This document shows positions 1,964-63,423 of a stretch of DNA of 64,000 nucleotides, in pieces (the first letter of the stretch is position 1; each line of letters starts with the position of its first letter). The position numbers and the translations under genes are program-made. The notes under the pieces are model-generated. The model saw nothing but the letters and a program-made list of their open reading frames with translations. It ran no database searches and was not told the origin of the DNA. The stretch is from a virus: the IMG/VR virus record IMGVR_UViG_3300037420_001273; one strand, given 5' to 3'.

Positions 1964-3959
1964 CCTCAGCGTTCAGTGGAATATCTGCACACCAGGCCGG
2001 TGGCGTGCGCATCACCTTGACCATGAAGTCGACGGCCTTCTGACCAACGGCCTTCTTCGCCAATGACACGACCTCGTCGTGCGTGGTCATGACAACCTGG
2101 TACACCTTGTCGATCGCGAGCAGCTGGCCCATCACGACGATCTTGGCCAGCGCCTGGACGATGTTCTCGCACAGCTTGCCGCCGTACAGCTTCGTAACGC
2201 CGTCGCGTGAGTCATAGACCCACGCATGTTCGAACTCTTCATCAGGGATCTGACGCAGGTGCGGGTAGTGCAGCGTCATGCCGTCAGGCAGATAGACGGT
2301 CTCCTTGTCCCAGCTCAAGCACTTCCAGCTGCCGGCGCGACCGACAGCCATGTCGGAGATGATCCGCTCGCAGATCTTCCAGCCGATCTGGATCTTGCTG
2401 TTCTTGCGGCGGTATGCCTGCACCGCCATGCGGCACGTGTTCTCGTCGAGGAACACCGGCGGGCCCATCGTGCCGAGCGCGAGCGTGTTCTGGAACTTCT
2501 TCCAGGCCGCCTGGTAGCCGAGCATGAGCACGGCGACCTTGCCGACGAAGCGCTCGTCCTTGTCGCTCTTCTCGATACGCCGGCCGTAGATCTTGTCGCT
2601 CTGCTTGCAGTACGGGTCGCGGTCCGTGTGATTGTCCGCGTCGCGGAACTCCTGCAGCAGGTCGAGCTGGTCCCACAGCCACGCATTCATGCGTGCTTCG
2701 ATCTGGCTCGAGTCGCACACGGCCAGGACATAGCCCGGCGGGGCTTTGATCGTCTTGCGCAGCTCGCTGCCGCGGCGCAGGTTCTGGAAGTTCGTCCCGT
2801 CACCGCCTCCGAGCCGCTTGGTGTGCGCGCCGGCGTATTTGTAGTACACCGGCAGGGGCAGTCCGTTTGCACCGAGCTTGAGGAACGTCGCCGCGCGGGT
2901 CTCTGTCCCGCTTGACTTCACCATGAGGCGCGCTTCGACCAGGTCGCGCACGCGGTCGTTCGAGTTCTCGAGCAGCTCGGTGAAGTCCAGGTCCGTCTTG
3001 CTGAACGCGTAGGTGTACTTCTTCGCGTCGTCACGCTGATCCTTGGGCTTCTTGATCCACGCCGGGCTGATCTTCATCGGCGGCTCGATGCCCTCGGCGC
3101 GCAGCAGCTCGGCGTAGCGGTCAGAGCCGATCAGCTTCTTGACGCGACGGATCGTCAGCTGTTCCTCGGTCGCCGTGGGCCCGAGCTTCTTGCGGTCCTC
3201 GCTGGTCAGCTTGATGTCTGCGGCCAGGTCGGCGAACGAGAGCAGCAGGGTGCGCTTGCGTTCCAGCTCGCGCTCGAGCTCTGCCCGGCAGCGGGCTTCG
3301 TCGAGCTTGAGCGCTGGTTGCGTGTACATCCGGCAGATGATGTGGATGAGCTCGAGCTCGTCGGCCGGCATCATCGGGAGCATCTGCTCGAAGATGCGCC
3401 GGGTCTCCTCGCCGTCCTGCATGCAGTACAGCATCGCGCGCTCGAGCTTCGCCTTGTCCTTGGCGAGCTCGGCCCAGTGCATGCCTTTGAAGTCCTCGGT
3501 GCCGCTGGCTGCTTTGCCGCGGCCACCCAGGAAGCGAGCCACTTCGTCCAGGCCCGCGCCGATGGAGTTGCTGAACAGCCCGCGTGCCATCGACAACGTG
3601 CAGTACAAGCGCTTGGGCTTGATGCCGTAGTGGTGGCTCAGGATGAGCCCGTCGAACTGCGTGTGGTGGCACAGCAAGCTGTGCGTCTCCCACGGGATCT
3701 TGCGCAGCTCGGTGGCGATCTTCGGGCCTGGCACGACCTTGGCGGGCTTGTTGCCCACCTGCAGGTACACCATCAGGGCTTCGAAGCGCGGATCGCGCAC
3801 GTACTGCGACGTGGTCAGCTTCTTGAGCGTGTACGTCTCGTCATAGAACGACTCGAAGTCCAGCGTGACGAGCCGCGACCAGTCGACTTTCTCGGTCGGG
3901 AACACCGGCCGCTCGATCACGAGCGACGCCGGCTTCTTGATGGCGGAGGACCAGCCCAT
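1935..3959 (-). CDS. Family A DNA polymerase with 3-5 exonuclease domain
   Basis: Motifs read from the 702-aa ORF: ExoI-like LDFESFYD, motif A CDSSQIEARMNAW, motif B RFVGKVAVLMLGYQAAW, motif C TTHDEVV. The start was moved to ATG 3959 (MGWSSAIKK), just downstream of the upstream stop at 3965-3967. Confidence 0.92.
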   Translation of the reverse strand: MGWSSAIKKPASLVIERPVFPTEKVDWSRLVTLDFESFYDETYTLKKLTTSQYVRDPRFEALMVYLQVGNKPAKVVPGPKIATELRKIPWETHSLLCHHTQFDGLILSHHYGIKPKRLYCTLSMARGLFSNSIGAGLDEVARFLGGRGKAASGTEDFKGMHWAELAKDKAKLERAMLYCMQDGEETRRIFEQMLPMMPADELELIHIICRMYTQPALKLDEARCRAELERELERKRTLLLSFADLAADIKLTSEDRKKLGPTATEEQLTIRRVKKLIGSDRYAELLRAEGIEPPMKISPAWIKKPKDQRDDAKKYTYAFSKTDLDFTELLENSNDRVRDLVEARLMVKSSGTETRAATFLKLGANGLPLPVYYKYAGAHTKRLGGGDGTNFQNLRRGSELRKTIKAPPGYVLAVCDSSQIEARMNAWLWDQLDLLQEFRDADNHTDRDPYCKQSDKIYGRRIEKSDKDERFVGKVAVLMLGYQAAWKKFQNTLALGTMGPPVFLDENTCRMAVQAYRRKNSKIQIGWKICERIISDMAVGRAGSWKCLSWDKETVYLPDGMTLHYPHLRQIPDEEFEHAWVYDSRDGVTKLYGGKLCENIVQALAKIVVMGQLLAIDKVYQVVMTTHDEVVSLAKKAVGQKAVDFMVKVMRTPPAWCADIPLNAEGGYAVEYSK

Positions 3960-7611: not shown

Positions 7612-7640
7612 GTAGTTAGATCGAAACACGATCTTAGACC
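7612..7640. promoter_or_regulatory. Dispersed motif instance
   Basis: gtagttagatcgaaacacgatcttagacc, just upstream of the nuclease gene start (7600). Confidence 0.55.
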
Positions 7641-8284
7641 AAAACACCCTCGGATTCATAGAGGTGGCGAGCGACTGCGGGGATGCGCTGAACGAAGCGT
7701 TCTTCGGTCCAGCACCAGCGCCTTTCGGCGTACTTCATCGTGTTCGCGATGGAGCTGATGTCGTTGATCTCGAAAGCGTGGGCAAGGGTACTGTGCAAAC
7801 CCCAACTGCTGACCCAGTGTTCCTTGTCTGTTAACTTCGACGCCACATACGCAACCTTGAAGATCTCTGTGATCTTCGCGATCAGTGCCTTGCGCCTGGC
7901 GGAGTCGATCTTTTTCCGCACCGGCGGGTCGAGCACGATGATGCTTCCGGCGGCATCGATCAGCAGGCGGCTGGTTGTATCGAACCTAGCGCCTTTGATT
8001 TTGCTCAGCGTGAACACGGTGCCGCCAGTGATCGATCGCTTTTTGCGGTCGAACTGCAAACCGACGTAGCTGCCGACGCGTCTGTCCCAGACAGCACACT
8101 GTGCGTATTGCTTGAACGGCGGCGGAACCGTGACGATGATCTCGCCGTTGGGCTTCCACCGCAGCGTCTCGTGCTTGTCGTACAGCAGCAGGATGTCGTC
8201 GTTCTGCGCACGAACGAGACAAGTGCAGTAGCTGAGCGGGCAGCCGATTGGGCCGCAGCGAGAGGACGCGTTGTTGTAGTTCAT
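7634..8284 (-). CDS. Hypothetical protein
   Basis: The start was taken at MNYNNASS (ATG 8284), which is ATGA-coupled to the upstream 57-aa ORF. Length is 216 aa. Confidence 0.65.
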   Translation of the reverse strand: MNYNNASSRCGPIGCPLSYCTCLVRAQNDDILLLYDKHETLRWKPNGEIIVTVPPPFKQYAQCAVWDRRVGSYVGLQFDRKKRSITGGTVFTLSKIKGARFDTTSRLLIDAAGSIIVLDPPVRKKIDSARRKALIAKITEIFKVAYVASKLTDKEHWVSSWGLHSTLAHAFEINDISSIANTMKYAERRWCWTEERFVQRIPAVARHLYESEGVLV

Positions 8285-9970: not shown

Positions 9971-10274
<304 letters not shown>

Positions 10275-10278
<4 letters not shown>

Positions 10279-10514
10279 TTGCGCTGTCTGTAGGAACAGT
10301 TGATGATGAACAACACGGCTGCCGTGTTGAGCTTCACGGTGCCACACTTATCGAGAACGGTGCTCGATGTAGGACCGTTCAAAGCGATCTCGCCGAGACC
10401 CTTCGTAGTGCCCCAATTGCGGACGACGCTTGCCTTCTCGAGTGTCTGCGCGTCAGCTTGTAGCTCTCCAATGAGCACCCAGCCGTTCGTGAGCACCACG
10501 ATCTTCTCGTTCAT
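10275..10514 (-). CDS. Hypothetical small protein
   Basis: 79-aa ORF (IVVLTNGWVLIGEL ... NWGTTKGLGEIALNGP). It is ATGA-coupled at both ends. Confidence 0.6.
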
Positions 10515-16013: not shown

Positions 16014-16040
16014 GGTTAGATCGAACGAAGAGATTAGATC
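16014..16040. promoter_or_regulatory. Dispersed motif instance
   Basis: ggttagatcgaacgaagagattagatc, upstream of the ATG at 15995. Confidence 0.55.
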
Positions 16041-16073
16041 ATGCGACGAAGCGCGTGGTCTACTGGTTTTCAC

Positions 16074-17908: not shown

Positions 17909-20283
17909 CCCTTCGCTCCTACAGCTTTGAGCTCAGGCTTGCCGGTCGGTGCGAACAAGCGCTTGAAGCGGGGCCACTGCGTGAGGTCGCGCCACTGCAC
18001 CTTCAAGCCGTAGACGGGCTCGCCGTCGACGCGTACGCGCTCGGTGGTGATGCGATGATGCTTGACGAAGCTGGTGAATTTGTTCGGGCTGTCGGGGATC
18101 TTGCCGACGGTGTACTCGAAGATGGCACGCAGCTCGTCGCGAGCGATATTGCAGCGGCCGTCGTTCATGTCCGTGCGCTCGAGCAGGCTCTTGATCACGT
18201 TCTTGTAGTCCTCGACCTTCGCGATCGAGCTGGCGCTGCCGAGGTAGCGGCTGTCCGTCGGCAGCTGGTCGATGAAGAACTCCATGTCGCCCTTGAGCAG
18301 CGCGTTCGCGACGCTGTCGGCTGAGGACTCGGTCAGGTCCATCAATGTGTCACGGTCGGCGTTTTGCAGAACGTTGAAGACCTTCGCGCGGTCGACCTTG
18401 AGTGCGAGCAGGAAGTCGTGGAACGGCTGCAGCTCGCGCTCGATCGTGGCCAGGTCTTTCTCGGTCAGCACGATCTTGTTCGGCTGGTACTTCGCGACGT
18501 TGAAGCGTCGATCATCCTTGGTCACGCGCACGGGTGCTGAGGCGTTCGAGCAAAAGATCCACGCGGTGTAGTTGCGCACCAGGCGAGCAGTGGCATGCAT
18601 GCGGCGCACCGGGATGAACTCATCGGTGATGTACATGCGCAGGTCCGCCATGGCTCCGCGCTCGTTCGACAGTGCGTTGGTCTCGACCTCATCGACGGTG
18701 ATCAGCAGGTTGTTCTCGATGAAGTCGTTGAACTTCTCGTCGAGCTGCTTCATGCGGATGACGGTGGAGTGCTGCAGGCCGAAGAGCGGGCGCAGGATCT
18801 TCGCGACCAGCGTGCCCTTACCTGTGCCGGGGATGCCGTGAAAGACCCAGGCGGTGAGCGGACGATCGCGTTCCTGCAGCACGTAGGCCAGCCAGTTGAC
18901 GAAATGGTTGTACGAGTCCGTGTCGTTGCCGCACACGTGCTCGATGACCTTGCGGATCGTCTTCGGCATATGAGCGATAGGCTTGGCCTGCGCTTTCATG
19001 AAGGAGCTCAGCTGGAACGTGTTGATGACGCGGTTGTCGATGTCCACGCGTACGCTGTCGTGCGGGTCGAACACAAGGCGCCATTCGGGGATCACGCCGT
19101 CGGGCAGCTGTATGCCGTTGGCTTTGGCGAAGTCCATCAGGACCTTGGAGCTCTTGGTTGGTTCGAGCTCGAGCTCGTCGTTGACCGAATCGTAAGTGCC
19201 GCGCCAGTAACGGTCGGTAGCTGGATCGATGAACGCGAGCTTGAGTACGCCCTGGGAGTCCGCCTTCACCGGCTGGTGGTGGAGCTGCTCCCAGTACTCA
19301 GGTAGCAGCTCCTTGGTCAGATAGATCGGCTCGCCCTTGAAGTTGAAGATGAACTCGGGGTTGTTCTCGGGGTGGTAGTACGCCCAGGAGTCACCGCCAT
19401 TGAGATTGAAGTAGACGAAGCCGCGTTCTTGCTTGATCTCGGTGACGGAGCAGACGTCGGGCTTGACCAACACCTCCATGCCGCTGTGCATCTTGTACTG
19501 CGTCTTGCGCTTGGGCAGTCCGTCGGTGGCGCGCAGCTCGTCGATGCGCTTGTTGATGGACTCGCGGTTCTTGGCGACAGTCGGGACAGCGGTGATGGAC
19601 AAGCGTTCCTTGTCCTTGCGCACGAGCGTGATGCGCGGCTGGTTCTTTAGCGGGTCTTTCACGCCCTTGAGCACCGGCGAGGCGATGTAGATCAGCTTGT
19701 CGTTCTGGCTTGCGCTGGTGTCCAGCGGCCAGTGGATCGAGTTGCCGGTCTTGGTCAGCGTCATCGACTCACGCAGCAGCGGCGTGGAGAAGTTCAGGCC
19801 GATGAGCCACTGCTTGAGCTGCGGCGCAGGCATTGGCTTGTCGAGCAGCATGAATACGTGCGCGCGCAGCTGCTTGTTCTCGAGTCCGTAGCTGGCGGAC
19901 CATTGGACGATGTAGGAGACGTCGTTCAGGCCGAGCACGAACAGAACGTCGTCGACGGTGACGGTCGCTGTCTTGCCGTCCACGGTGGTGGTGTCGGGCA
20001 GTCCGTCGATGTCCAGGCAGATCCACTCGGTGGGCTCGTTGCTGTCCGTGGTGCCGGCACGCGACTCGTTGACGAGGGTGCGAGCCAGGTGGCCTTTGAG
20101 CAGGCAGTGGTTGAGCTTGGCGTGGTGCTTGAGCACAGCTTCGAAGTCGCGCAGGTCGCGCACGTTCGCTTCGTGGCTGGTGACTTCGTAGACGTGTGGG
20201 TAGGGGGTCTTCTTGAGCGTTCCCTGCGCAAGCTCGTAGGTCTTGGTCAGGGGCACTGTGGCTTCGAGGAAGTGCAGCTTCAT
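17905..20283 (-). CDS. Primase-helicase (N-terminal primase-like region plus P-loop NTPase)
   Basis: 792 aa. P-loop FHGIPGTGKGTL with downstream LLITVDEV. The overall architecture resembles VirE/D5-type phage or plasmid primase-helicases (from memory). It is the first long gene of the leftward operon. Confidence 0.9.
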   Translation of the reverse strand: MKLHFLEATVPLTKTYELAQGTLKKTPYPHVYEVTSHEANVRDLRDFEAVLKHHAKLNHCLLKGHLARTLVNESRAGTTDSNEPTEWICLDIDGLPDTTTVDGKTATVTVDDVLFVLGLNDVSYIVQWSASYGLENKQLRAHVFMLLDKPMPAPQLKQWLIGLNFSTPLLRESMTLTKTGNSIHWPLDTSASQNDKLIYIASPVLKGVKDPLKNQPRITLVRKDKERLSITAVPTVAKNRESINKRIDELRATDGLPKRKTQYKMHSGMEVLVKPDVCSVTEIKQERGFVYFNLNGGDSWAYYHPENNPEFIFNFKGEPIYLTKELLPEYWEQLHHQPVKADSQGVLKLAFIDPATDRYWRGTYDSVNDELELEPTKSSKVLMDFAKANGIQLPDGVIPEWRLVFDPHDSVRVDIDNRVINTFQLSSFMKAQAKPIAHMPKTIRKVIEHVCGNDTDSYNHFVNWLAYVLQERDRPLTAWVFHGIPGTGKGTLVAKILRPLFGLQHSTVIRMKQLDEKFNDFIENNLLITVDEVETNALSNERGAMADLRMYITDEFIPVRRMHATARLVRNYTAWIFCSNASAPVRVTKDDRRFNVAKYQPNKIVLTEKDLATIERELQPFHDFLLALKVDRAKVFNVLQNADRDTLMDLTESSADSVANALLKGDMEFFIDQLPTDSRYLGSASSIAKVEDYKNVIKSLLERTDMNDGRCNIARDELRAIFEYTVGKIPDSPNKFTSFVKHHRITTERVRVDGEPVYGLKVQWRDLTQWPRFKRLFAPTGKPELKAVGAKG

Positions 20284-20293
20284 GGGGCGCTCA

Positions 20294-20320
20294 GTGTAGA
20301 TCGAACGAAGACGTTAGAAC
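20294..20320. promoter_or_regulatory. Dispersed motif instance
   Basis: gtgtagatcgaacgaagacgttagaac, just upstream of the primase-helicase start (20283). Confidence 0.55.
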
Positions 20321-20389
20321 AGAGCTCAAGTTCCGGTCTGGATCGGGACAACGGAACGCCAAAAACGCGCCTAAGTCCTTGATTCTTAA

Positions 20390-20564
20390 GCTTTGTTCTA
20401 ATGTTCTGTTCCATTCTTGATTTTTCTTGTATGAAAGAGAAATACTTAATATACAGAGATACTATATAAAAAGTACTGTATGGAAAAGTATGTTGGGGGG
20501 AGTATCAAAAGTGCTCTCTCCTATAAAGAGTTGGAGAGATCGGAACGGAATTTTGGAACAGGGG
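20390..20564 (+). repeat. AT-rich structured element, copy A (22-bp closing stem around a 129-nt AT-rich interior)
   Basis: The left arm 20391-20412 pairs with the right arm 20542-20563 (16 Watson-Crick pairs, 5 G:T, 1 mismatch). The element shares TTGTTCTAA[TA]GTTCTGTTCCATTCTT (25/26 identical) and TCTCCTATAAAGA with copy B at 61868-61999. Confidence 0.8.
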
Positions 20565-20584
20565 GCCGGAGCCCCCTGCGTGCG

Positions 20585-21439
20585 TCACTCGATGGCGTTG
20601 AAGTGCTTGTGCTTGAGCTGCACGCCGAGCTGCTTCTTGAGCTCGCGCACGTCGGTGAACAGTGTCGCGAAGTCGAGCGACGACACGCGGTTATCGCGCC
20701 GGGCGTTGTCGACGCAGCGGTCGAGACCGCGCATCGCAGCGTTGAGCAACTTGAACTGCGTGCGCGCGTCCAAGTCGCCGAACGGGTCGTCGTGCATCGT
20801 GTCCAGGCTGATGTTCATGCAGTTGAACAACACGGTCAGCGACTTGGCTCGGTTCTTGTCGAAGTCGTGCAGGCGCACCTGCTCGAGCTTGTCCTTGGTC
20901 GCGAGGTCATGACGCAGCGCTTCGGCCAGTTCCTTGTCGCCGTCGGCGATGAGCTCGATGAGCTGCTCGTTCTTGGCGCGCGTCTCGGCGGTGACCGAGC
21001 GCAACCGCGGGTTGGAGATGACGTCGTGCAGTGCCGGGATCTTGGTCGAGTCGCCCTTATGGATGCGGTGCCAGATCTCTTCGCGGATGTCGAGCAGCAG
21101 AGCGATGCGCTGCTTCGTCTCCGTGACCTCGAAGCCTTGGTCCTGCAGGTTGGCTTCGTTCTCGTTCAGGCTCTCGACGAACGCGAGCATCGCCGCGTAC
21201 GAGTCGAACGTCGGCTCTTCCGTGTTCTGGTCGCCACGGTAGAAGTCGTTGAGCATCTGGCCGAGCGTGGCGGTGATGTTGCCGTCGGCGCTGAACGCGA
21301 TCGCGCGCATGACCTCATCCTTGATCCGGTCGTTGTCGATGGCTTCGGTCCAGTCGAGCAGATCGAACGAGAACGGGTTGAGCTGCGAGTGCACGGCAGC
21401 GGCTTGTTCGGGGGTCAGGACATGGGTTTGGTTGGCCAT
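20585..21439 (-). CDS. Hypothetical protein
   Basis: 284-aa ORF with good codon bias and GGAG upstream of the ATG. Confidence 0.75.
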   Translation of the reverse strand: MANQTHVLTPEQAAAVHSQLNPFSFDLLDWTEAIDNDRIKDEVMRAIAFSADGNITATLGQMLNDFYRGDQNTEEPTFDSYAAMLAFVESLNENEANLQDQGFEVTETKQRIALLLDIREEIWHRIHKGDSTKIPALHDVISNPRLRSVTAETRAKNEQLIELIADGDKELAEALRHDLATKDKLEQVRLHDFDKNRAKSLTVLFNCMNISLDTMHDDPFGDLDARTQFKLLNAAMRGLDRCVDNARRDNRVSSLDFATLFTDVRELKKQLGVQLKHKHFNAIE

Positions 21440-21529: not shown

Positions 21530-21709
21530 TCACCCGTGGTTGAGCGTAAGCAAGGCGAGGGGCATGCCCAGATCCTCTTCGTGCTCGGCGACTTCGTCGA
21601 ACACGGGATCGTCGGACTCGGTGATGGGTTCTAGCTCGAGTTCATCGCGTGGTTGCTCCAGTAGATCGAACGAAGAGATGCGAACGCGAACGACAGCTAC
21701 GCGGGCCAT
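21530..21709 (-). CDS. Possible small acidic protein (59 aa, below ORF-track cutoff)
   Basis: Own translation: MARVAVVRVRISSFDLLEQPRDELELEPITESDDPVFDEVAEHEEDLGMPLALLTLNHG. It reads through the dispersed motif at 21661-21685 and overlaps the upstream ORF by 13 nt. The region may instead be an untranslated leader. Confidence 0.3.
   Translation of the reverse strand: MARVAVVRVRISSFDLLEQPRDELELEPITESDDPVFDEVAEHEEDLGMPLALLTLNHG
21661..21685. promoter_or_regulatory. Dispersed motif instance
   Basis: gtagatcgaacgaagagatgcgaac. Confidence 0.5.
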
Positions 21710-26417: not shown

Positions 26418-26674
26418 TGGCCCGCCGCCGCAAAGCCGTCTTCACCCACAAGGGCTGGATCGGCCTGGCGCCGATCTACATCGGCGCGCTCAACGGCCCC
26501 GACGACACCCCGCTCGACGTCATGGCGCGCTCCGCGTGGCTCGAGTGGTGGGCGAGCCTGAACTGCTCGGTCATCTACTTCATCGGCTGGCTGTTCGGCA
26601 CTGACCGAGCCCCGTTCGTCGTCACCGACGACGTCGACCCGCCGATTGTGCGCTACGTCGAGGAGGACGAGTGA
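26417..26674 (+). CDS. Hypothetical small protein
   Basis: 85-aa ORF, coupled to both neighbours. Confidence 0.6.
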   Translation: MARRRKAVFTHKGWIGLAPIYIGALNGPDDTPLDVMARSAWLEWWASLNCSVIYFIGWLFGTDRAPFVVTDDVDPPIVRYVEEDE

Positions 26675-41397: not shown

Positions 41398-43692
41398 GTG
41401 CTGCTGTTCCATCAGAACCTGCTGAACGGCAATCGCTACGTGAATCATCACGTGGCGGGCACGTGGCTGCCCGGACTGCGCGAACGCGCGCAGATCATGT
41501 TCTTCAGCGCGAACCAGGCGAGCGCGGCGCTCACTGGGTCGAGCGCCACTACGACCGCCGGAACTGCTGCGCCCACGATCTCAGTCGCGCTTACCGGTAC
41601 GACGGCCTCCACTGGCCAGGGCTCGTTCCCGCTCGTCTATGGCATCGGTACCCGTGTGGTCAATCCGCACGTGGCCGGGCGCTGGGTACCTGATGTCGCG
41701 GAGCGCGCGAAGCTGCTCCTGTTCTCGGCCACCCTGAGCAACGTTGCGCTCGCTGGCTCGAGTGCTACCGCCTCCGCGGGGTCCGCCACGGCGGCAATCA
41801 GCACGGCTCTGACTGGCGTCGGTGCAACCTCAGCAGTCGGCGCGATCACGTCGTCGTCGACTGTCGCCCTGACCGGCTCCGCGTCGACGGCCTCCGCGGG
41901 CACGATGGCGCCGACGCACACGGCTGCGCTGTCCGGGAGCGCCGCCACTGGCGCCCAAGGCAGCGTGTCGGCCAGCGGCAGCGGCTCAGCCTCGCTCAGC
42001 GGCTCGGCTGCTACGGCCTCCACCGGTACGCCGGCGGTGACGCACACCGTGGCCCTGACGGGCGCTTCAGCCACGTCTGCGCAAGGCTCCGTCATCCCCG
42101 GGCTGCAGCTCACCGGTGCCCAGGCAACCGGCGCTGCGGGCACGCTCGGCGTCGCCGCTGCGATCCCGCTCACCGGCGCCTCGAACACTGCTGCGGCGGG
42201 CGCGCTGTCCGCCGGCGTGACGCTCGCGCTGAACGGGCAGGGCGCCGTGATCGCTCAGGGCCAGTTCTCGGCGGTGTTCGATGCCTATGGCGCACGGGCG
42301 GTCAACCGCCACGTTGCGGGCACCTGGTCGCCGGTGATGCACCAGCGAGCCGTGGTGATGATGACCGGCGGCTCCCTGGTCGGTCAGCAGGCGAGTGCAG
42401 CCGCCGGGGCGATGACGACTTCGCGCACGATCGCGCTCACCGGCGCCGCCGCTACGGCGCAGGCTGGGGCGCTCTCGGCGAACCAACCTGCCGGCGTCAA
42501 CCCAACCGTCACCGGCTGGTGGACCGGCGCTGTCGTCAAGCGTTTCTCGTTGCTGGCGCCCGGCATCGAGCTGATCGGTGTGTCGGCCGCGGCGTCCACC
42601 GGTGTTCTCTCGCCTGTGCGCAGCATCGCGCTCACCGGCTCGATTGCCACGGCCGCAGCTGGTTCGCTCGCCGCGACGATCCGCGTGGCGCCGAGCGGTT
42701 TGTCCGCTACGGGCGCACAGGGTTCTGTTGGGCCGGCTCAGCCTCTGGTCGGCAGCAGCCTGACTGGCGCCACAGGTACGCTGAACCTCGTCAACTCGCC
42801 TGCGCTGAGCAACGCGCTCGCCAGCACCTCCGCCGGCAACCTCGGCGAGCTGGTGTCTGCATTCGCGCTCACCGGTGGCTCTGCTACGTCGCTCACCGGT
42901 ACTGCCGCGCCGGCTATCACGATCGCGCTCACCGGCGCCGCCGCTACGGCCGCCGGCGGTACGCTGTCTGCATCCAAATCCCTCAACGGCGCTGCCGCCA
43001 CGGCTGCGGCCGGCACGCTCGGCGTGACGACCAGCATCGCGCTGACCGGCTCGGCTGCTGCGGGCGCGCAGGGCTCGGTTGGTACGAGCTTCGCCGGCAA
43101 CGTGAGCCTGACCGGCTCTGCTGCGACGGCCGCGGCTGGCGTTCCTGGCGTCTCAGTCACGATCGCGCTGTCTGGCGCCGGTGCAGCCGCCGCGGTGGGC
43201 TCCGTCGGCCAGTCGCGCGCTGTCAGCACCAGCGGCGCGGCGGCCTCGAGCGTCGCAGGCAGCGTCGCTGCGGTCATCGCGAAGGCGCTCGCCGGCGCGC
43301 AGGCTGCGATGCAGGCCGGTGCCGTCAATATCCAGGGCGACTCCACGATCGCGCTCACTGGTACCGGCGCAGCGGCTGCGCAAGGGTCTCTCAGCTCGAG
43401 CTTCGCGGTCGGCGTTACCGGCGCGCAACTGGTCGCGGCGCAGGGCGCTGTCGACAAGGTGCTCGGCGCCGCGCTGTACGGCGCGTCCTTGAGCGCTCAG
43501 GCGGGTACCTTCATCGTCACCGGCGGCGTCATCGGCAGCGACGGCGGCGTGACCTCGCCCATCTACGCCCGCACGTTCATTGACCAGCGCACCGCCCAGA
43601 CGTTTATCGACGATCGCTTCGCTCACACCACAGACGGCGATACGAGTGCATCGACGTCTGACTCTGACATCGCTGCTTACACCCGGGAGTGA
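41398..43692 (+). CDS. Ala/Gly/Ser/Thr-rich repeat fibre-like protein
   Basis: 764 aa with a GTG start. It contains about 28 copies of a roughly 20-aa ALTG-x-x-AT-x-x-x-G unit, punctuated by four VN-x-HVAG-x-W-x-P ... RA units. Confidence 0.7.
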   Translation: MLLFHQNLLNGNRYVNHHVAGTWLPGLRERAQIMFFSANQASAALTGSSATTTAGTAAPTISVALTGTTASTGQGSFPLVYGIGTRVVNPHVAGRWVPDVAERAKLLLFSATLSNVALAGSSATASAGSATAAISTALTGVGATSAVGAITSSSTVALTGSASTASAGTMAPTHTAALSGSAATGAQGSVSASGSGSASLSGSAATASTGTPAVTHTVALTGASATSAQGSVIPGLQLTGAQATGAAGTLGVAAAIPLTGASNTAAAGALSAGVTLALNGQGAVIAQGQFSAVFDAYGARAVNRHVAGTWSPVMHQRAVVMMTGGSLVGQQASAAAGAMTTSRTIALTGAAATAQAGALSANQPAGVNPTVTGWWTGAVVKRFSLLAPGIELIGVSAAASTGVLSPVRSIALTGSIATAAAGSLAATIRVAPSGLSATGAQGSVGPAQPLVGSSLTGATGTLNLVNSPALSNALASTSAGNLGELVSAFALTGGSATSLTGTAAPAITIALTGAAATAAGGTLSASKSLNGAAATAAAGTLGVTTSIALTGSAAAGAQGSVGTSFAGNVSLTGSAATAAAGVPGVSVTIALSGAGAAAAVGSVGQSRAVSTSGAAASSVAGSVAAVIAKALAGAQAAMQAGAVNIQGDSTIALTGTGAAAAQGSLSSSFAVGVTGAQLVAAQGAVDKVLGAALYGASLSAQAGTFIVTGGVIGSDGGVTSPIYARTFIDQRTAQTFIDDRFAHTTDGDTSASTSDSDIAAYTRE

Positions 43693-44778: not shown

Positions 44779-46029
44779 ATGACCGCGAACGACCGCCAGA
44801 AGTCCCTCGGCCCGTTCTCGCTGGGGGTCAACAACCGTCTGCCCGACTTTAAGTTGCGGACCAAAGACGGCGACTTCGTTCGCTCTGCCGTCAACGTCGA
44901 CCTGACCACGGAAGGCTCGTTCAAGCGCCGCGGCGGAACGCTCAAGCTCATCGCTGGTGACCAAGCATCTTCGCTGTGGTCAGACGAGGACGACGCCTTC
45001 TACTTGGATTCGGGGACGCTCTATCGCCTCAGCGGTAGCGTTTCCTCGCCAGTCCGCGTTCCGCTTGCGAGCGGGCTTCCGAACAAAAGCTTCAGCTACA
45101 CGCGCGCCGGCGCCGAGATTTACGCGAGCAACGGGCAGCAGCTGTACCGGATCAGCGGTAATTCACTCCTCGTCGCTGGTGTTCCGCTCATTGCGCCGGA
45201 ACCGGACGTGACCGCCGCGTCTGGAGGCTCGCTGCCCGCCGGCGAGTACCAGGTGTGTTTCACCTATGTCGCGGAGGATCTGGAAGAAAGCGGCTCAACC
45301 GTACCTGTACGTGTGAGTGTCGGCCTCAACGGAGCGCTGTCGTTCACCAACATCCCGACGCCGCCCGCGGGGGCAGTGCTGCGCGTCTACATGACTTCGG
45401 TGAACGATAACGTCCTGCTGCGCGCGTTTGACATGCCGGCGTCTGGGAGCTTCACTCTTACCGCGCGGCCTACGCTGGGCTCGCGCTGCATGACATTGCT
45501 GCTGCGGCCGATGCCGGCTGGCGACGTCGTGCGCTGGTTGAACGGCCGCTTGTACGTCGCCGCCGGCGACACCGTGTACTACAGCGAGCCCTACGCGCCG
45601 ACGCTGTTCAACCCGGCGCGCAACTACATCCTGTTCCCTTCGACTATCTCCATGCTGGAGACGTGCCAAAACGGCCTGTACGTCGCCGCCGACCAGACCT
45701 ACTGGCTTGGTGGTGATCCAAGCGGCGCGTCGCTCGACCCAGTGCTCCCGTATGGAGCTGTTCCCGGCTCGAGCGTGCAGTCGCCGGTGAAGAACGAGTG
45801 CTTTTGGATGAGCGTGCGCGGTCTCGTACGCGGCGATCAGAACGGCGTAGCCACCAACTTGCAAGAGGCGTTCGTTGCGGTGGAGCCTGCACAAGCAGGC
45901 TCCACTTTGTTTCGCGAGCAGGACGGCGTCCGCCAGGTGCTGTCGTCGCTCTTCGGTGGCGAGCAGACCGTGACGGCTGCTCGCAGCTACATGGACGCGG
46001 AAGTGATCCGCAAGGAGACCATTCTATGA
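44779..46029 (+). CDS. Tail structural protein candidate
   Basis: 416 aa. The dispersed motif lies directly upstream. Confidence 0.7.
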   Translation: MTANDRQKSLGPFSLGVNNRLPDFKLRTKDGDFVRSAVNVDLTTEGSFKRRGGTLKLIAGDQASSLWSDEDDAFYLDSGTLYRLSGSVSSPVRVPLASGLPNKSFSYTRAGAEIYASNGQQLYRISGNSLLVAGVPLIAPEPDVTAASGGSLPAGEYQVCFTYVAEDLEESGSTVPVRVSVGLNGALSFTNIPTPPAGAVLRVYMTSVNDNVLLRAFDMPASGSFTLTARPTLGSRCMTLLLRPMPAGDVVRWLNGRLYVAAGDTVYYSEPYAPTLFNPARNYILFPSTISMLETCQNGLYVAADQTYWLGGDPSGASLDPVLPYGAVPGSSVQSPVKNECFWMSVRGLVRGDQNGVATNLQEAFVAVEPAQAGSTLFREQDGVRQVLSSLFGGEQTVTAARSYMDAEVIRKETIL

Positions 46030-57800: not shown

Positions 57801-60373
57801 TCAACCGCCACGACGGTACCGAGCGTGCCGTGGACGCGATCAACGAGCGCCTGGGCCAGCTGGTGCAGGACCCCGACGTCGCCTACAGCCTGCAGCGCAC
57901 GCGCGAGGGCAAGTCGATCTCGCCGGCGAAAGAGGCCGAGGTCCGCGAGCACATCGAGAAGGTCCTGGGCCCGCAGGTGCGTGTCGAGACCGCGAAACTG
58001 GCCCACGCCGGCGACTTCCATCGTGTCAACGGCGAGGACGTCATCCGCGTTAGCACCCACGCGCTGAACCCGATGAGCGTGGCGTACCACGAGAGCCTGC
58101 ACGGCTTCTTCGCCCAGCTGCGCGACGCCGGCCTGCACGAGGTCACGAAGCCGCTGCTCAAGGCCGCGGAGAGCGCCCACGTCATGGGGCAGCTGCGCGA
58201 GCTGCTGCGCAAGGAGCCTGAGGCGCTCAAGCAACTCGAGAACCCCGAGGAGCGGGTCGCCTACATGTACCAGTTCTGGGCCAACGGGAAGCTGACCGTC
58301 GGCCCGGCGGCGAAGAACGTGTTCCAGCGCGTCGCCGACATGTTCCGCCGCGTGCTGGGCATCTGGTCGAACGACGAGCGCGCGCTGCACGTCATGGAGT
58401 ACTTCCAGCGCGGTGACTTCGCCAAGGACGCTCACGACCCGTCTGCCGCCGGCCGCGCGCTGCTCGAGCCCGGGCGCAATGCTGCGCTGGAGAAGGTGAA
58501 GGCGATGACGCAGCCGCTGGCGCGCCTGGCCGACACACTGGGCACCGCCGGCGCGGCGCGCCTGCGCGACACGAAGGTGCCGGCGCTGCTCGAGCTCACC
58601 GACCGTATGAAGGGCTCCCTGACGGGCCAGAACGAAGACCCTGGGTTCCTGCCGGCTGCTCGCATCGAGCGCACGCGCGTGATGAACGAGCTGGGTGCGA
58701 AGCTGAGCCAGTTCAGCAAGGAGGCCCTGCACGAGGCCCTGGAGGCGATGCAGGCCGGCGCCAAGCCCGCCAGCACCGAGGCGAAGGCTGCGCGGCTGCA
58801 CGTGCGCAAGGCGCTGGACGCGCTGTTTGACTACATGAGCGCCGCCGGCGTGAAGGTCGGTGACCTGGGCTACGGCAAGGACTACTTCCCGCGCGTCTAC
58901 GACCCGGACTTCATCAGCCGACACCAGGACGAGTTCCGCACGCTGCTCGAGGCCCACGGCGTCAAGGACCCCACCGGCGTGATGGCGCGGATCATGGCGA
59001 ACGACGGCTCGTTCCTGACCATCGAGACGCCGAAGCCGGGCATGCAACACCTGAAGGAGCGGGTGCTGGCGCACATCCCTGATGCGCAGCTGCGTCCGTT
59101 CATGCGCAAGGACCTGTTCGAGATCATGAACAGCTACGTCACGCAGGCGGCGCGGCGCGCGGAGTGGGCGCGGCGCTTCGGCGACGACGGAAAAGGCATC
59201 CAGGAGCTGCTGGCGCGCGCCAAGGAAGAAGGCGCCAGCGCGGAGCAACTGAAGACCGCGGACGACTTCATCCATGCGATCGACGGCACGCTGGGTGACA
59301 ACCTGAACCCGACGGCGCGGCGTCTGTTCGGCAACGCGATCGTCTACCAGAACATCCGCCTGCTGCCGCTGGCGATCTTCTCGTCGGTGGTCGACCCCCT
59401 GGGCATCGTCGTGCGCGGCGGCACGGTGGGCGATGCCTGGAGCACGTTCAAGCGCGGTGTCCGCGAGACGGTCAAGAACTTCAAGAGCGCGCCGGACAAA
59501 GACGCCGCCACTGAGCTGGCTGAGACGATGGGCGTGGTAGACAACGCTGCGCTGGTGCATACGCTGGGCGCCCTGTACAGCCAGGGCATGGTCGGCGACA
59601 CCGCGCGCAAGATCAACGACACGTTCTTCCGCTTCAACCTCATGGAGCAGTTCAACATCTCCATGCGGGTCGGCGCCACTGAGGCGGCGCTGAAGTTCAT
59701 CGCCCGACACGCCGGCGGCGAGAGCGAGCACAGCGCGCGCTACATGGCCGAGCTGGGGCTCGAGAAGAGCGACGTCAAGCTCGACGACGCCGGGCGGCCG
59801 GTGATCAACGACAAGGTCCGCCTGGCGGCCAACAAGTGGGTCGACGGCGCCGTGCTGCGCCCTGACGCGGCCGACAAGCCGATCTGGATGAGTGACCCGC
59901 ACTGGGCGCTCATCGCGCACCTGAAGCAGTTCGTCTACAGCTTCCACGAGACGATCCTCAAGCGCGTCGTGCACGAGTACCAGCACGGCAACTACAAGCC
60001 GGCGATGGCGATGGCGGCGTACGTGCCCGTGATGATCGCCTCGGACCTTGTCAAGGGCCTCATCCAGGGCGGCGGACAGCAGCCTGACTGGAAGGACAAG
60101 TGGGGCGCGGAGGACTATCTCTGGTCCGGCGTGCAGCGCGCGGGGCTGTTGGGCAGCGGCCAGTTCCTCGCCGACATGGCCGGCGACATCAAGGAAGGGG
60201 GCGTAGGCGTCGGCGCCCTGGGCGGGCCGACGATCGAGCAGTTCACCGACGCCGTGCGCGTGCTCGAGGGCCGGGAGATGTTCCACAGCTTCGCCCTGAA
60301 GAGCATGCCGGCGAACGCGCTGTACGCGACGCTGGCCGGCGGCCAGGCGACTGACCCGAAGTTCGCGGACTAA
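54899..60373 (+). CDS. Giant virion protein (1824 aa) with zincin HExxH motif; ejection / polyvalent protein candidate
   Basis: The N-terminus has Gly/Ala-rich hydrophobic segments. HESLH lies at residues 1064-1068 (nt 58088-58102) in the context VAYHESLHGFFAQL. Confidence 0.85.
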   Translation: MGLLADLLAQQEAQQAEPTLGESFGAGLRSGGLAAGGQLATLGGSVLDSPELLATGRRLRGEAAAAAPVVGSLRDVHSLGDFGHYAAGLAGGMVPTAGAALGAGLLTRDPRKATLAGTAALSPLEVGDVLQRQEEAGQPLDLRTAVPAGVASAAVQNVLPGAARAAKIPGGALAAIPEQAALAGGSEAIKQQGAGQQLDPEAIKEAAAGGAVMGAPVAAVHGLSANKSKLKNLYEGARGKVDESLDRVSKGIPLGDLKEFGDAQGDKLNDLVKRSDELGVEKAKQWGQELLAKGGLTPEKQAELVQAMSNLHDDANRMLVAGMKKAQDLGSDALDHVNAFADHAKELWAGAKSKAAEAAGKKSEDYSGLRAAIADVIQNVAGPALRERHPELLNNPEAIDKLAGGMRYAAESLARDGHLDEKTTSLMHDFFGDDTRSVLEELHGVVANQKDQPATERYFKGLNEIADNERQGLQLREVVAKYAKDKDAAEVDAAVNNIRRILNGDTTKDLHGEQKAYEERRLMDLIHQEFGADTDKVLAAFEKDTKRAKYSAVGPAEDPELVKTLEQPGDQAALLNKGEPVESPQTHRANYDSESRAERMIREAEAKYPDVKARFLSHDEAVQHGLVDEGAQTPEGHGYVAAFKTAGSDKLTDAELSSMRFAHDKTNARSNPSLVDFGTGGYYDARKVTSVMHAKLGDQLPDAGTDVRLARAFMNGVGQLAEKTGEAPKLNDTIVIGQINGAPLTWGEAKKLTAVEGGRNYDAELQALRKQYSEARARRDERGMDETARKAQRVKDARDEEIAGREDRADKPVDESLREQGKQEADPDGQIHEAAAALSPNELERKNPVPSAKPTPADALRALDSKLKRMEASAVKAVRDAGAAARELAKQWKTLDDEQRQMLLSLVKQHDMTKAVALVKELTAPAKEVPASGPKALLDKARSPDSTFLERVAKNDDAKGLQRAVEELNRHDGTERAVDAINERLGQLVQDPDVAYSLQRTREGKSISPAKEAEVREHIEKVLGPQVRVETAKLAHAGDFHRVNGEDVIRVSTHALNPMSVAYHESLHGFFAQLRDAGLHEVTKPLLKAAESAHVMGQLRELLRKEPEALKQLENPEERVAYMYQFWANGKLTVGPAAKNVFQRVADMFRRVLGIWSNDERALHVMEYFQRGDFAKDAHDPSAAGRALLEPGRNAALEKVKAMTQPLARLADTLGTAGAARLRDTKVPALLELTDRMKGSLTGQNEDPGFLPAARIERTRVMNELGAKLSQFSKEALHEALEAMQAGAKPASTEAKAARLHVRKALDALFDYMSAAGVKVGDLGYGKDYFPRVYDPDFISRHQDEFRTLLEAHGVKDPTGVMARIMANDGSFLTIETPKPGMQHLKERVLAHIPDAQLRPFMRKDLFEIMNSYVTQAARRAEWARRFGDDGKGIQELLARAKEEGASAEQLKTADDFIHAIDGTLGDNLNPTARRLFGNAIVYQNIRLLPLAIFSSVVDPLGIVVRGGTVGDAWSTFKRGVRETVKNFKSAPDKDAATELAETMGVVDNAALVHTLGALYSQGMVGDTARKINDTFFRFNLMEQFNISMRVGATEAALKFIARHAGGESEHSARYMAELGLEKSDVKLDDAGRPVINDKVRLAANKWVDGAVLRPDAADKPIWMSDPHWALIAHLKQFVYSFHETILKRVVHEYQHGNYKPAMAMAAYVPVMIASDLVKGLIQGGGQQPDWKDKWGAEDYLWSGVQRAGLLGSGQFLADMAGDIKEGGVGVGALGGPTIEQFTDAVRVLEGREMFHSFALKSMPANALYATLAGGQATDPKFAD

Positions 60374-61867: not shown

Positions 61868-61999
61868 CCCTTGTTCTAAAGTTCTGTTCCATTCTTACTT
61901 TCTTATGTGAGAAAAAATAATAGATATTCATAATATATTAAGGGTCCACAAGAGTCTCCTATAAAGATGTTCGCGGTGGAACAGAACTTTGGTACGGAG
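61868..61999 (+). repeat. AT-rich structured element, copy B (22-position closing stem around an 87-nt AT-rich interior)
   Basis: The left arm 61869-61890 pairs with the right arm 61978-61999 (17 Watson-Crick pairs, 3 G:T, 2 mismatches). It shares conserved boxes with copy A at 20390-20564. Confidence 0.8.
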
Positions 62000-62062
62000 C
62001 CTTTCACACACGTGTGGGCTCTTCGCTGCGTCACGACACGCGGTCTCTAACGGCGGTGAAGA

Positions 62063-62072: not shown

Positions 62073-62107
62073 GCGCTAAGTGCGCGCCGCTGCTTCAGTT
62101 CTTCCGC

Positions 62108-62152
62108 CTCTTAATCCGTTGGTCGTAGGTTCGAATCCTACAGGGCCCACCA
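62108..62152 (+). other. attP core: 3-prime 45 nt of a tRNA-Lys(CUU) (anticodon loop to CCA), not an intact tRNA gene
   Basis: ctcttaa (loop, anticodon CTT), tccgt, tggtc, gtagg-ttcgaat-cctac (T arm), agggccc-a-cca. The 5-prime anticodon-stem strand, D arm and 5-prime acceptor strand are missing upstream. Confidence 0.8.
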
Positions 62153-62187
62153 AAATTTCCTTGTGGATCAGGCACTTAGCGACACCG

Positions 62188-62286: not shown

Positions 62287-63423
62287 GTGGCTGGTGTACG
62301 CAAGATCAAGAAGACCGGGAAGTGGGAGGTGGCGGTGCGCCACAAGGACCTGCCAAACGGCCGCAAGTTCTTCACGTTCGACGACGAGGCCGCAGCGCGT
62401 GAATATGCGCGTCAGTGGGACGGCCTCGTCGAGCGCGGCGCGGCGCTGCCTTCGGAACTTCTCGAGCACACGCCGGCGCACCTGAAGACGCCGCTGGCCG
62501 TCGCGATCCGCGAGTGGCTGAACACCGGCAGACCATCGACGTCGGACCAGGAGCTGCTCGCGCTGCTCGTGCATGAGGTCGGCGCCGTGACGTTCGCTGA
62601 GTTCAAGTACGCGTGGGTCGAGCGTTGGATCGAAGCGATGAAGCTGCGACGCAACTTCGCGCCCGGCACGATCCGCAAGCGCGTCGGCGCTCTGTCGCGC
62701 GCGATCGACGCGTACCTTCGCAAGCACGAGCTCGAGCTGCAGAACCCGCTCAAGCTGCTGCCAGACCGGTACTCGGTCTACAACGACGTCGACGCGGAGA
62801 AAGTTCAGGCCGTTGGCTTGAAGGTCAAGCGCGACGAGGTTCGGCAGCGCCGGCTGGAGCCGGGCGAAGAGCAGCGCATCATGGCGCAGCTCAAGGACCG
62901 GCCGCACCTGCGGTTGCTGTTCCTGGTGATCCTGCACACCGGCGCGCGCTTGAAGGAAGCGTACACGCTCATGCGCAAGCAGATCGACTTGAAGGCGAAG
63001 GTGATCCGCTTCAAGAAGAGCAAGCAGTGGTATGGGAAGGTGGCGTTCAAGGACGTGCCGATCAAGCCGGAGCTCTACGTGGTGCTCGAAGCGCATATGC
63101 GCGAGCACCCGGGGCTGCCGACGGCTGATCTGTTCCCGTGGTTGGAGCACTACGGGGATGAGCGCGCCGTGTCGGCGCACCTGAGCGAGCAGTTCGCTCG
63201 TGTGTTTGAAGCAGCTGGCTGCGAGGGCCTGAAAGAACACGACCTGAGGCACGAGGCCACGTGCCGTTGGTATGAGTTGCGCGGCGCTAACGGCACCTGG
63301 TTGCTACACGACAAGGAGATCCACCGCATCATGGGCTGGAGCGAGAAGTCGACGATGTCGCAGCTCTACGCCTCGTTCCGCGGCGAGGACCTAGCAGCCA
63401 GGCTCTGGGGTACTGGAGCGTAA
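62287..63423 (+). CDS. int: Tyrosine recombinase / phage integrase
   Basis: 378 aa with a GTG start. Catalytic signature: HTGARLKEA (Arg), HDLRHEATCRW (H-x-x-R), MSQLYASFR (Tyr). It lies adjacent to the tRNA-derived att core. Confidence 0.92.
   Translation: MAGVRKIKKTGKWEVAVRHKDLPNGRKFFTFDDEAAAREYARQWDGLVERGAALPSELLEHTPAHLKTPLAVAIREWLNTGRPSTSDQELLALLVHEVGAVTFAEFKYAWVERWIEAMKLRRNFAPGTIRKRVGALSRAIDAYLRKHELELQNPLKLLPDRYSVYNDVDAEKVQAVGLKVKRDEVRQRRLEPGEEQRIMAQLKDRPHLRLLFLVILHTGARLKEAYTLMRKQIDLKAKVIRFKKSKQWYGKVAFKDVPIKPELYVVLEAHMREHPGLPTADLFPWLEHYGDERAVSAHLSEQFARVFEAAGCEGLKEHDLRHEATCRWYELRGANGTWLLHDKEIHRIMGWSEKSTMSQLYASFRGEDLAARLWGTGA

Follow-up and report, generated by a model that had tools for sequence, protein, structure and literature searches.

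IMG/VR virus record IMGVR_UViG_3300037420_001273, analyzed here as one stretch of 64,000 nucleotides (nt; hereafter the window), carries two homologous AT-rich islands, one at positions 20390-20564 (copy A) and the other at 61868-61999 (copy B), with coordinates and shared blocks as stated in an earlier note on this DNA. What purpose do these islands serve? In that note, the long inverted-repeat stem of each copy was taken to suggest selection on a plus-strand RNA, and a protein-bound origin next to the primase-helicase gene was listed among the alternatives. The comparative evidence described below favors the origin alternative and extends it to a conserved two-site design. We estimate a probability of about 0.7 that the islands are DNA sites of replication-origin type, in which phage-specific repeats surround an AT-rich core and are read by the phage's own primase-helicase.

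The guanine-plus-cytosine (GC) content of the window is about 62%, and these are its only two strongly AT-rich islands, with a 100-nt GC of 0.26 in copy A and 0.28 in copy B as compared to ~0.62 overall. The block TTGTTCTAA[T/A]GTTCTGTTCCATTCTT is found in each copy (20393-20418 in A and 61871-61896 in B). Its 16-mer, GTTCTGTTCCATTCTT, has exactly two sites in the window when up to three mismatches are allowed, while 0.12 would be expected and none of 100 shuffles reached two. The box TCTCCTATAAAGA is likewise found once per copy (20517-20529 and 61955-61967), with no other site in the window at two or fewer mismatches, and the right ends correspond to each other as GGAACGGAATTTTGGAAC (20544-20561, copy A) and GGAACAGAACTTTGGTAC (61979-61996, copy B). 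Copy A is located between the primase-helicase gene and the terminator-like hairpin of a gene encoding 284 amino acids (aa), approximately 110 nt upstream of the primase-helicase ATG.

The repeat unit of the window is RTTCY, contained within TTGTTCTAA and GTTCTGTTCC, and the two islands are its only clusters, apart from outlying units at 20314-20360. The earlier note had correctly tied the arms to GTTCTAA-type half-sites. In both copies, short repeats (5-8 nt) flank the AT-rich region with at least two units per side, and the units on the two sides are opposed. A search of the window for DnaA boxes (TTATCCACA), also in a relaxed form, found none.

Islands and primase-helicases of related phages

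The metagenomic search found more than 400 relatives. The loci examined comprise 80 metagenomic loci and 79 IMG/VR loci around primase homologues; in IMG/VR, a single-protein search gave no homologues and an alignment-based search succeeded. Nearly every one of these loci has an AT-rich island located 60-250 nt upstream of primase, with a minimum 80-nt GC of 0.12-0.33 as compared to 0.5-0.64 for the locus; among the ~78 metagenomic relatives, primase identity is 45-71%. The closest relative (locus L062, primase ~71-72% identical) has its AT-rich island in the same place, with arms that differ in sequence and still form an inverted repeat. In the window and in almost all relatives, a helicase of superfamily 3 (SF3), the putative initiator, is encoded together with a primase next to the site.

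When read in the plus orientation of the window, the islands share a common plan. A flanking box resembling CTAAGTCATTGATTTATATAC or (A)CCTATATA comes first, followed by two or three tandem copies of a short unit, a core that is T-rich and then A-rich, and a (T)TCCTATA(W)A(G) box, which in the window is TCTCCTATAAAGA, so that a CCTATAAAG-type box stands beside the core; inverted copies of the tandem unit follow, and then the terminator hairpin of the upstream gene. Boxes of the CCTATA(W)A(G) type are found at the equivalent place in most relatives and in Pseudomonas phage KPP25 (Kochitakasuvirus), the closest cultured relative (primase identity 42%). The tandem unit itself is phage-specific: GTTCTAAAG, CTTCCAAT, CTTATACT, TTACAC, TTCTAC, TGTTCAA and others are used. 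In L065, L073, L122, L127 and KPP25, extra units lie beyond the island, where they are unable to form the stem. Additionally, L122 and L138 have two or three perfect DnaA boxes (TTATCCACA) clustered in the intergenic region upstream of primase, which suggests that some members of the family may recruit host DnaA.

Several other motifs recur around these islands. Between the right arm of island A and the stop codon of the upstream gene, a number of relatives (for example L064, L079, L080, L081, L082 and L119) have a GCAGTCCGT(A/T)G...CCAGG motif and others have GCCCATA(G/A)A...CCTGG; the window has neither, with a plain GC hairpin at 20561-20576 in their place. A partly palindromic TGCTTAAAAATGAGGCA box is present on the left flank of many A and B islands (for example in L074, L080, L081, L082; L065, L123, L234), and a GTCTTATATAAGAC palindrome is found in L234 and L238. 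The TGCTTAAAAATGAGGCA box and the GTCTTATATAAGAC palindrome may be sites for a second factor.

KPP25 (GC 0.60) has exactly two islands, at 26441-26621 and 58291-58471, which are 31.85 kilobases (kb) apart in a genome of 64.1 kb and are homologous to each other, with TGTTACGA/GTCACGA units around an AT-rich core. As the second of them lies just after the gene for a giant virion protein, this gene was taken as the anchor for island B. Near-complete IMG/VR contigs that contain the two anchor genes, each accompanied by an island (n = 12), are referred to as paired relatives. In all 12, island A is upstream of primase and island B is directly after the giant virion-protein gene, with an A-B spacing of 39-62% of the contig. 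Island B also follows the giant-protein gene in L232 and L234; no island was found after this gene in L236. At the sequence level, a distant second candidate cis site with matching repeats is thus present in the window, in KPP25 and in 12/12 paired relatives.

The A and B islands of any one genome have an identical repeat word and often extended stretches that are nearly the same (92% identity over 171 nt, 93% over 58 nt and 98.7% over 158 nt). The word changes from genome to genome while both copies of a genome are alike, and the copies therefore evolve in concert. Their relative orientation is direct in nine of the paired genomes and inverted in three. In the window, copy B adjoins a gene for a 349-aa phosphoesterase-like protein; other relatives of this gene occur mostly in ~44-kb phages and lack a downstream island, indicating that copy B is not tied to the 349-aa gene. 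A more distant phage, Aeromonas phage phiA008 (L385/L386; primase 26% identical), has a strong pyrimidine-repeat AT-rich island at 2841-3041, 2.8 kb into its early operon. The distance from the island to the early/late divergence is similar in the three phages, being ~2.4 kb for copy A, ~2.5 kb for KPP25 island 1 and ~2.8 kb for the phiA008 island.

A conserved site of ~20 nt, TTCGGGGCTnTTCGCnGCG, was also observed near island B in 11 relatives, with GTGTGGGCTCTTCGCTGCG as its form in the window (62012-62030). The site is always on the late-gene strand and never near island A, and the sequence downstream of it is unconserved. It is possibly a packaging or termination site.

Residues 417-673 of the window's primase-helicase match the SF3 helicase of the NrS-1 primase-polymerase (PDB 6k9c) with E = 4e-36 by sequence and 9e-50 by profile. 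Beyond this core, an AlphaFold model of residues 660-792 (predicted local distance difference test score 87.7) shows a strand-helix-helix-beta-hairpin arrangement that is winged-helix-like, with a putative recognition helix at 733-742 (PNKFTSFVKH) followed in the predicted model by the beta-hairpin. The top Foldseek matches of this C-terminal domain are winged-helix DNA binders (TcpK, Orc1/Cdc6, PadR and MarR), all weak, with a best E of 8.5e-3.

The type of repeat co-varies with this domain. Phages were assigned to repeat classes by their dominant core (TTCCA, TTCTA or TTACA) using counts of TTNNA cores, as counting 7-mers was too noisy. The difference between within-class and between-class identity peaks at residues 721-770, where it is 0.15-0.16 as compared to 0.057 overall. 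After regressing out the identity of the rest of the protein, the class effect has a coefficient of 0.088 (z = 8.1), which none of 300 label permutations reached. Residues 734/741/743/744 are A/G/R/Q in TTACAC-type phages versus N/K/H/R, and the class-specific residues fall in the predicted recognition helix and hairpin. Residue 751 is Arg in 14 phages, 11 of which have at least five GTTC in the island, and Trp in 72, of which only two do (Fisher p = 1e-9). The window phage has Arg751 and GTTCY units, while L062 has Trp751 and TTCTAC/TTACAT/TTCCAA units. We infer that the repeats are read by the C-terminal domain of the primase-helicase, residues ~700-780 (17944-18186).

Gene setting of the window

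Early and replication genes occupy the minus strand from position 1 to ~22.9 kb, and late and structural genes the plus strand from ~23 kb to 61.86 kb (Table 1). A protein identical to the 349-aa product is encoded on contigs of up to 70,027 base pairs (bp), so that the phage genome is probably ~70 kb.

Table 1. Positions of the island components, neighboring genes and related sites.
Feature	Positions	Strand	Remarks
Copy A left repeat array, TTGTTCTAATGTTCTGTTCCATTCTT	20393-20418	+	4-5 RTTCY units in a single orientation
Copy A AT-rich core	20419-20516		T-rich then A-rich; candidate DNA-unwinding region; 100-nt GC 0.26
Copy A conserved box, TCTCCTATAAAGA	20517-20529	+	identical in copy B
Copy A right repeat array, GATCGGAACGGAATTTTGGAAC	20541-20561	minus	3 RTTCY units in the opposite orientation; 3' arm of the 'stem'
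RTTCY outliers beyond island A	20314-20360		TTAGAAC at 20314-20320; inverted pair GTTCC...GGAAC at ~20331-20357
Copy B left repeat array, TTGTTCTAAAGTTCTGTTCCATTCTT	61871-61896	+	4 RTTCY units
Copy B AT-rich core	61897-61954		100-nt GC 0.28
Copy B conserved box, TCTCCTATAAAGA	61955-61967	+	
Copy B right inverted array, GGAACAGAACTTTGGTAC	61979-61996	minus	2 inverted RTTCY units
Primase-helicase, 792 aa	17905-20283	minus	DUF5906 (Pfam), DNA-primase PHROGs; NrS-1-type SF3 helicase
284-aa gene	20585-21439	minus	
GC-rich hairpin GGGGGC-CGGA-GCCCCC	20561-20576	minus	directly 3' of the 284-aa gene stop codon
Internal virion protein, 1824 aa	54899-60373		
tRNA-Lys(CTT) 3' half	62105-62155		with T-arm and CCA end; resembles an attachment (att) core
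Tyrosine integrase	62287-63423		
TTCGGGGCTnTTCGCnGCG sites in relatives	L232 13078; L319 4523; L320 5503; L322 4945; L323 4601; L335 4575		
TTCGGGGCTnTTCGCnGCG sites in relatives, remainder	L337 2820; L340 4614; L341 4406; L349 4319; L358 4705		

The GC-rich hairpin at 20561-20576 is probably the terminator of the 284-aa gene and separate from the repeat element. It was not called in a strict terminator scan; comparable GC hairpins are present at the equivalent position in relatives. On the other side of the late operon, the tRNA-Lys 3' half and the tyrosine integrase gene have the look of an attP-int module, which begins 105 nt to the right of copy B. ARAGORN reported neither a tRNA nor a transfer-messenger RNA in the window, where 62105-62155 represents only a 3' half. 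Four independent metagenome contigs of the same phage (L144, L147, L148 and L149) end 30-500 bp past the 349-aa gene, at or near copy B, consistent with assembly breaks at a repeated island. Metagenomes that contain this phage include JGI 3300037423 and 3300037466.

Repeats of another kind are found elsewhere in the window. Tandem repeats with a period of 12 nt (14 overlapping copies) occupy 10021-10295, where several candidate open reading frames (ORFs) overlap on both strands, and a GC-rich unit of 54 nt has nine dispersed copies at 41859-43397, within a 764-aa late ORF (41398-43692). Both are probably repetitive segments of proteins.

Other readings of the islands

AT-rich islands with repeated protein sites are also typical of promoter-operators, and we considered whether the repeats are repressor or activator operators and the cores promoters, acting on the primase operon at copy A and on the integrase gene at copy B. 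The positions of the islands would suit this reading, as A is upstream of the primase gene and B is upstream of attP and the integrase gene. The TATA-rich boxes are conserved, and TTGATTTATATAC, which stands beside the repeats in some relatives, resembles promoter hexamers directed toward primase. The earlier note had reported no convincing sigma-70 hexamers; our scans found no acceptable pair at A and one weak pair at B. A conserved promoter-like motif of 25 nt already stands in front of the primase gene, between its ATG and the island. No single direction of transcription suits both copies, whose relative orientation flips in 3/12 genomes, and in KPP25, L232 and L234 island B lies between late genes or behind them, where a promoter would have no obvious target. 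The covariation of repeat type with the helicase C-terminal domain also argues against operators. We consider control of transcription improbable as the main function of the islands, but as origins often overlap promoters, they may have a secondary regulatory role.

The 25-nt motif, TAGATCGAACGAAGAnnTTAGAWC, has five strong copies on the plus strand (1478-1502, 7617-7641, 16017-16041, 20297-20321 and 21662-21686), all in the minus-strand early region, and weaker matches at 4924, 23654, 44737 and 46522 (10 matches as compared to 0.46 expected). The copies at 20297 and 1478 are 8-13 nt upstream of candidate starts on the minus strand, namely the primase ATG at 20283 and an ORF start at 1469. Related motifs precede primase in relatives, and the TGTTCTAA end of the motif resembles the island repeat. 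The motif looks like a phage-specific promoter or leader element.

The islands could also serve another DNA transaction with a phage-specific binder, as centromere-like partition sites, packaging or termination sites or, for copy B, the arm sites of attP. Copy B is indeed near the integrase gene and 105 nt from the tRNA-Lys 3'-half att core, and it is located roughly at the meeting point of forks from A. The two dispersed repeat clusters also recall the scattered centromere sites of plasmid-prophages. Copy A, in contrast, has no att context. KPP25 has both islands and its annotation lists no integrase, though a later paper reports an integrase-like protein in its genus. No partition genes were noticed near either copy, the whole genome not having been searched for them, and packaging sites are normally single. 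An attP-arm, partition or packaging role would fit one copy at best, whereas an AT-rich core between opposed repeats beside an SF3 initiator gene is a specific signature of an origin. Readings of this type are, in our view, quite improbable.

A structured plus-strand RNA, in which the island is transcribed and a G:U-tolerant stem closes a non-coding RNA, an RNase III site or a terminator-like barrier, had been the leading suggestion for the islands. The stem is real as a sequence feature. In copy A as in copy B, 21 positions of the best 22-mer pairing are Watson-Crick or G:T, confirming the 22-position closing stem, while shuffled sequences had a mean of 16.7 and a maximum of 19 for copy A and a mean of 15.1 and a maximum of 18 for copy B, with 0/200 reaching 21. 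The pair counts described for copy B were also reproduced (17 Watson-Crick, 3 G:T, 1 A:C and 1 other), and G:T pairs exceed A:C pairs in both window copies. RNAfold recovers the closing stem in both copies. For copy A, the fold is much more stable on the plus strand (-62.8 kcal/mol, z -6.1) than on the minus strand (-38.4 kcal/mol); in copy B the values are -35.4 kcal/mol (z -2.5) and -33.2 kcal/mol.

The bias toward G:U-compatible pairs that had suggested selection at the RNA level does not extend to the relatives. A strand-neutral inverted-repeat search of 106 non-redundant homologous islands found 32 G:T and 37 A:C pairs. When 105 islands were folded, 57 had their more stable fold on the plus strand and 47 on the minus strand; the difference averaged -0.34 kcal/mol, z was -2.2 versus -2.5, and the difference between strands tracked G+T content (r = -0.62). 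The stem has no fixed position in homologues: the best stems change place and partner between phages, and the best inverted repeats pair repeat arrays, outlying repeats or CTCTATATA boxes depending on the phage. A hairpin would also leave the tandem direct repeats and outlying units unexplained. In each genome, one copy is co-directional with the surrounding transcription and the other antiparallel, and island B is inverted relative to A in 3/12 genomes. Rfam searches of the window at gathering thresholds and of both islands at permissive E-values returned only chance microRNA-like matches and the partial tRNA, and scans for sigma-70 promoters and terminators found no promoter-terminator pair framing copy A or copy B.

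Taken together, these comparisons point to double-stranded DNA sites and leave the RNA reading unsupported once relatives are considered; we regard it as very improbable. The long stem is simply the two opposed repeat arrays, and the G:U excess in the window results from local composition, as T is more frequent in the left array and G in the right array. For the scanning of genomes, this case advises caution: opposed protein-binding repeats around an AT-rich core can be mistaken for the arms of a long stem in RNA, and base composition alone may produce a G:U excess in a single genome.

Two insertions of a miniature inverted-repeat transposable element, which had been offered as a further alternative, would explain terminal inverted repeats of ~22 nt, an AT-rich, foreign-looking composition and the presence of two copies, but this reading is scarcely tenable and we reject it, since no target-site duplications flank copy A or B, phages with primases only 42-71% identical, each with its own repeat word, have their islands at the same two syntenic positions, and no other copies were found, the left-arm pattern (19 specified bases) being absent from 185,579 reference genomes (GTDB). 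Separately, 61 IMG/VR matches to the 16-mer GTTCTGTTCCATTCTT were set aside, all of them in unrelated AT-rich contigs without an adjoining TTGTTCTAA.

A candidate two-site replicon and its known counterparts

As origin-type sites, the islands would work as follows. An SF3 primase-helicase of the NrS-1, P4 alpha and SaPI (Staphylococcus aureus pathogenicity island) Rep kind would recognize the repeats via its C-terminal winged-helix-like domain, assemble on both sides of the core, melt the core and prime DNA synthesis. From the architecture we infer binding, melting and initiation, and also a division of labor between the copies. Copy A would likely be the primary origin, because its forks would run in the direction of transcription on either side; they would meet near copy B. 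Copy B, at the far end of the late operon and 41.5 kb from A in a genome of ~70 kb, would bind the same protein and could be a second origin, a cis partner of A resembling the P4 site crr (acting by looping, handcuffing or fork arrest) or the point where forks meet.

Several observations weigh against this interpretation or restrict it. Origin function is argued from architecture and context. Forks from copy B would collide with the transcription of late and early genes, which argues against B as an ordinary origin. Neither KPP25 island adjoins the primase gene, which is 12 kb from island 1. In phiA008 only one island is convincing; after its giant protein gene (45151-45251) there is a short AT-rich hairpin and no repeat island, and on this evidence the two-island design may be limited to the KPP25-like clade. 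PDB sequence and profile searches with the primase-helicase matched the NrS-1 helicase core only, with no match to P4 alpha or SaPI Rep, and a match to TIGR01613 was far below the cut-off. The Foldseek matches of the C-terminal domain are weak, and the P4 alpha origin-binding domain (1KA8) is not in the top 50. The covariation statistics are only partly corrected for shared ancestry. Finally, nothing in the SaPI or P4 models corresponds to the conserved CCTATAAAG-type box.

A stronger proposal is that the phage is an obligatory two-site replicon, with concertedly evolving initiator-binding islands on approximately opposite sides of the genome, in which copy B, rather than being a redundant origin, licenses or terminates replication as a crr-like partner or a programmed meeting point. 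We put this forward tentatively, as the odds are against it. If it is true, the islands would provide natural pairs of protein and repeat specificity (Arg751 with GTTC, and Trp751 with TTCCA/TTATA) for dissecting SF3 initiators. Independently of that proposal, the diversity of repeat words paired with C-terminal variants is a ready data set on initiator-DNA specificity. The two-site layout appears to recur across a large, little-studied family of ~65-kb phages, and a literature search on the KPP25 (Kochitakasuvirus) group and its metagenomic relatives found, among the papers open to search, no description of an origin, repeat or AT-rich island. The islands at 26441-26621 and 58291-58471 of KPP25 are thus candidate origins with coordinates in a cultured phage, of a type used in therapy-oriented work on Pseudomonas aeruginosa.

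Known replication systems resemble the islands to different degrees. Iteron plasmids and phage lambda have origins in which repeated initiator sites lie beside an AT-rich unwinding element (PMC4980987, PMC7466680). Their initiators are not helicases and recruit host DnaB, and their iterons are 17-22 bp long and mostly direct, unlike those of the window. DnaA boxes are part of this likeness only through relatives L122 and L138.

Among eukaryotic viruses, short inverted recognition repeats lie beside AT-rich tracts at the origins used by simian virus 40 and polyoma large T, by papillomavirus E1 and, in herpes simplex virus, by UL9 at oriS and oriL. Large T and E1 are SF3 proteins, with the initiator helicase assembling as two opposed hexamers, and herpes simplex virus has several homologous origin copies per genome. 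The likeness is one of working principle only, as there is no sequence relationship, the hosts are different and the origin-binding domains differ.

A closer counterpart is found in the SaPIs, whose Rep and PriRep proteins are self-loading SF3 helicases with the NrS-1 helicase as their closest structural homologue, PriRep5 being fused to a primase (PMC9371898). The C-terminal winged helix of SaPI Rep reads iterons of 5-6 nt; the SaPI ori contains 6-12 of these, distributed in opposite orientation to the two sides of a central AT-rich region, no fewer than two per side, and the iteron word is element-specific and matched to the element's own Rep (PMC9371898). The window agrees with this system in the architecture of its islands, in having NrS-1 as the best PDB relative of its helicase and in element-specific repeat words; its C-terminal domain is predicted to be winged-helix-like, with weak fold matches. 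It differs in that the SaPI ori is single and immediately downstream of rep, whereas here one site is upstream of the gene and a second lies at a distance of roughly half the genome. The searches detected no sequence similarity to SaPI Reps, and the hosts are Gram-negative, with podovirus-like phages of 60-70 kb in place of 15-kb satellites.

For the two-site design, the nearest counterpart is P4. P4 alpha, like ORF904 of pRN1, combines primase, SF3 helicase and winged helix in one polypeptide (PMC2777425). The primase of alpha is of the DnaG/Toprim type, whereas the N-terminal 400 residues of the window protein are without an assignment. In P4, ori and crr are reportedly separate cis sites that share octamer iterons bound by alpha; their spacing is said to be ~40% of the genome, and crr reportedly works either way round. 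The P4 crr is structurally different from ori, while A and B are near-copies that each have an AT-rich core. Both systems have a two-site design, and the variable relative orientation of islands A and B matches the reported activity of crr in either orientation. Should the obligatory two-site replicon prove correct, the ori/crr principle of P4, a satellite of 11.6 kb, would extend to autonomous phages that form a large family.

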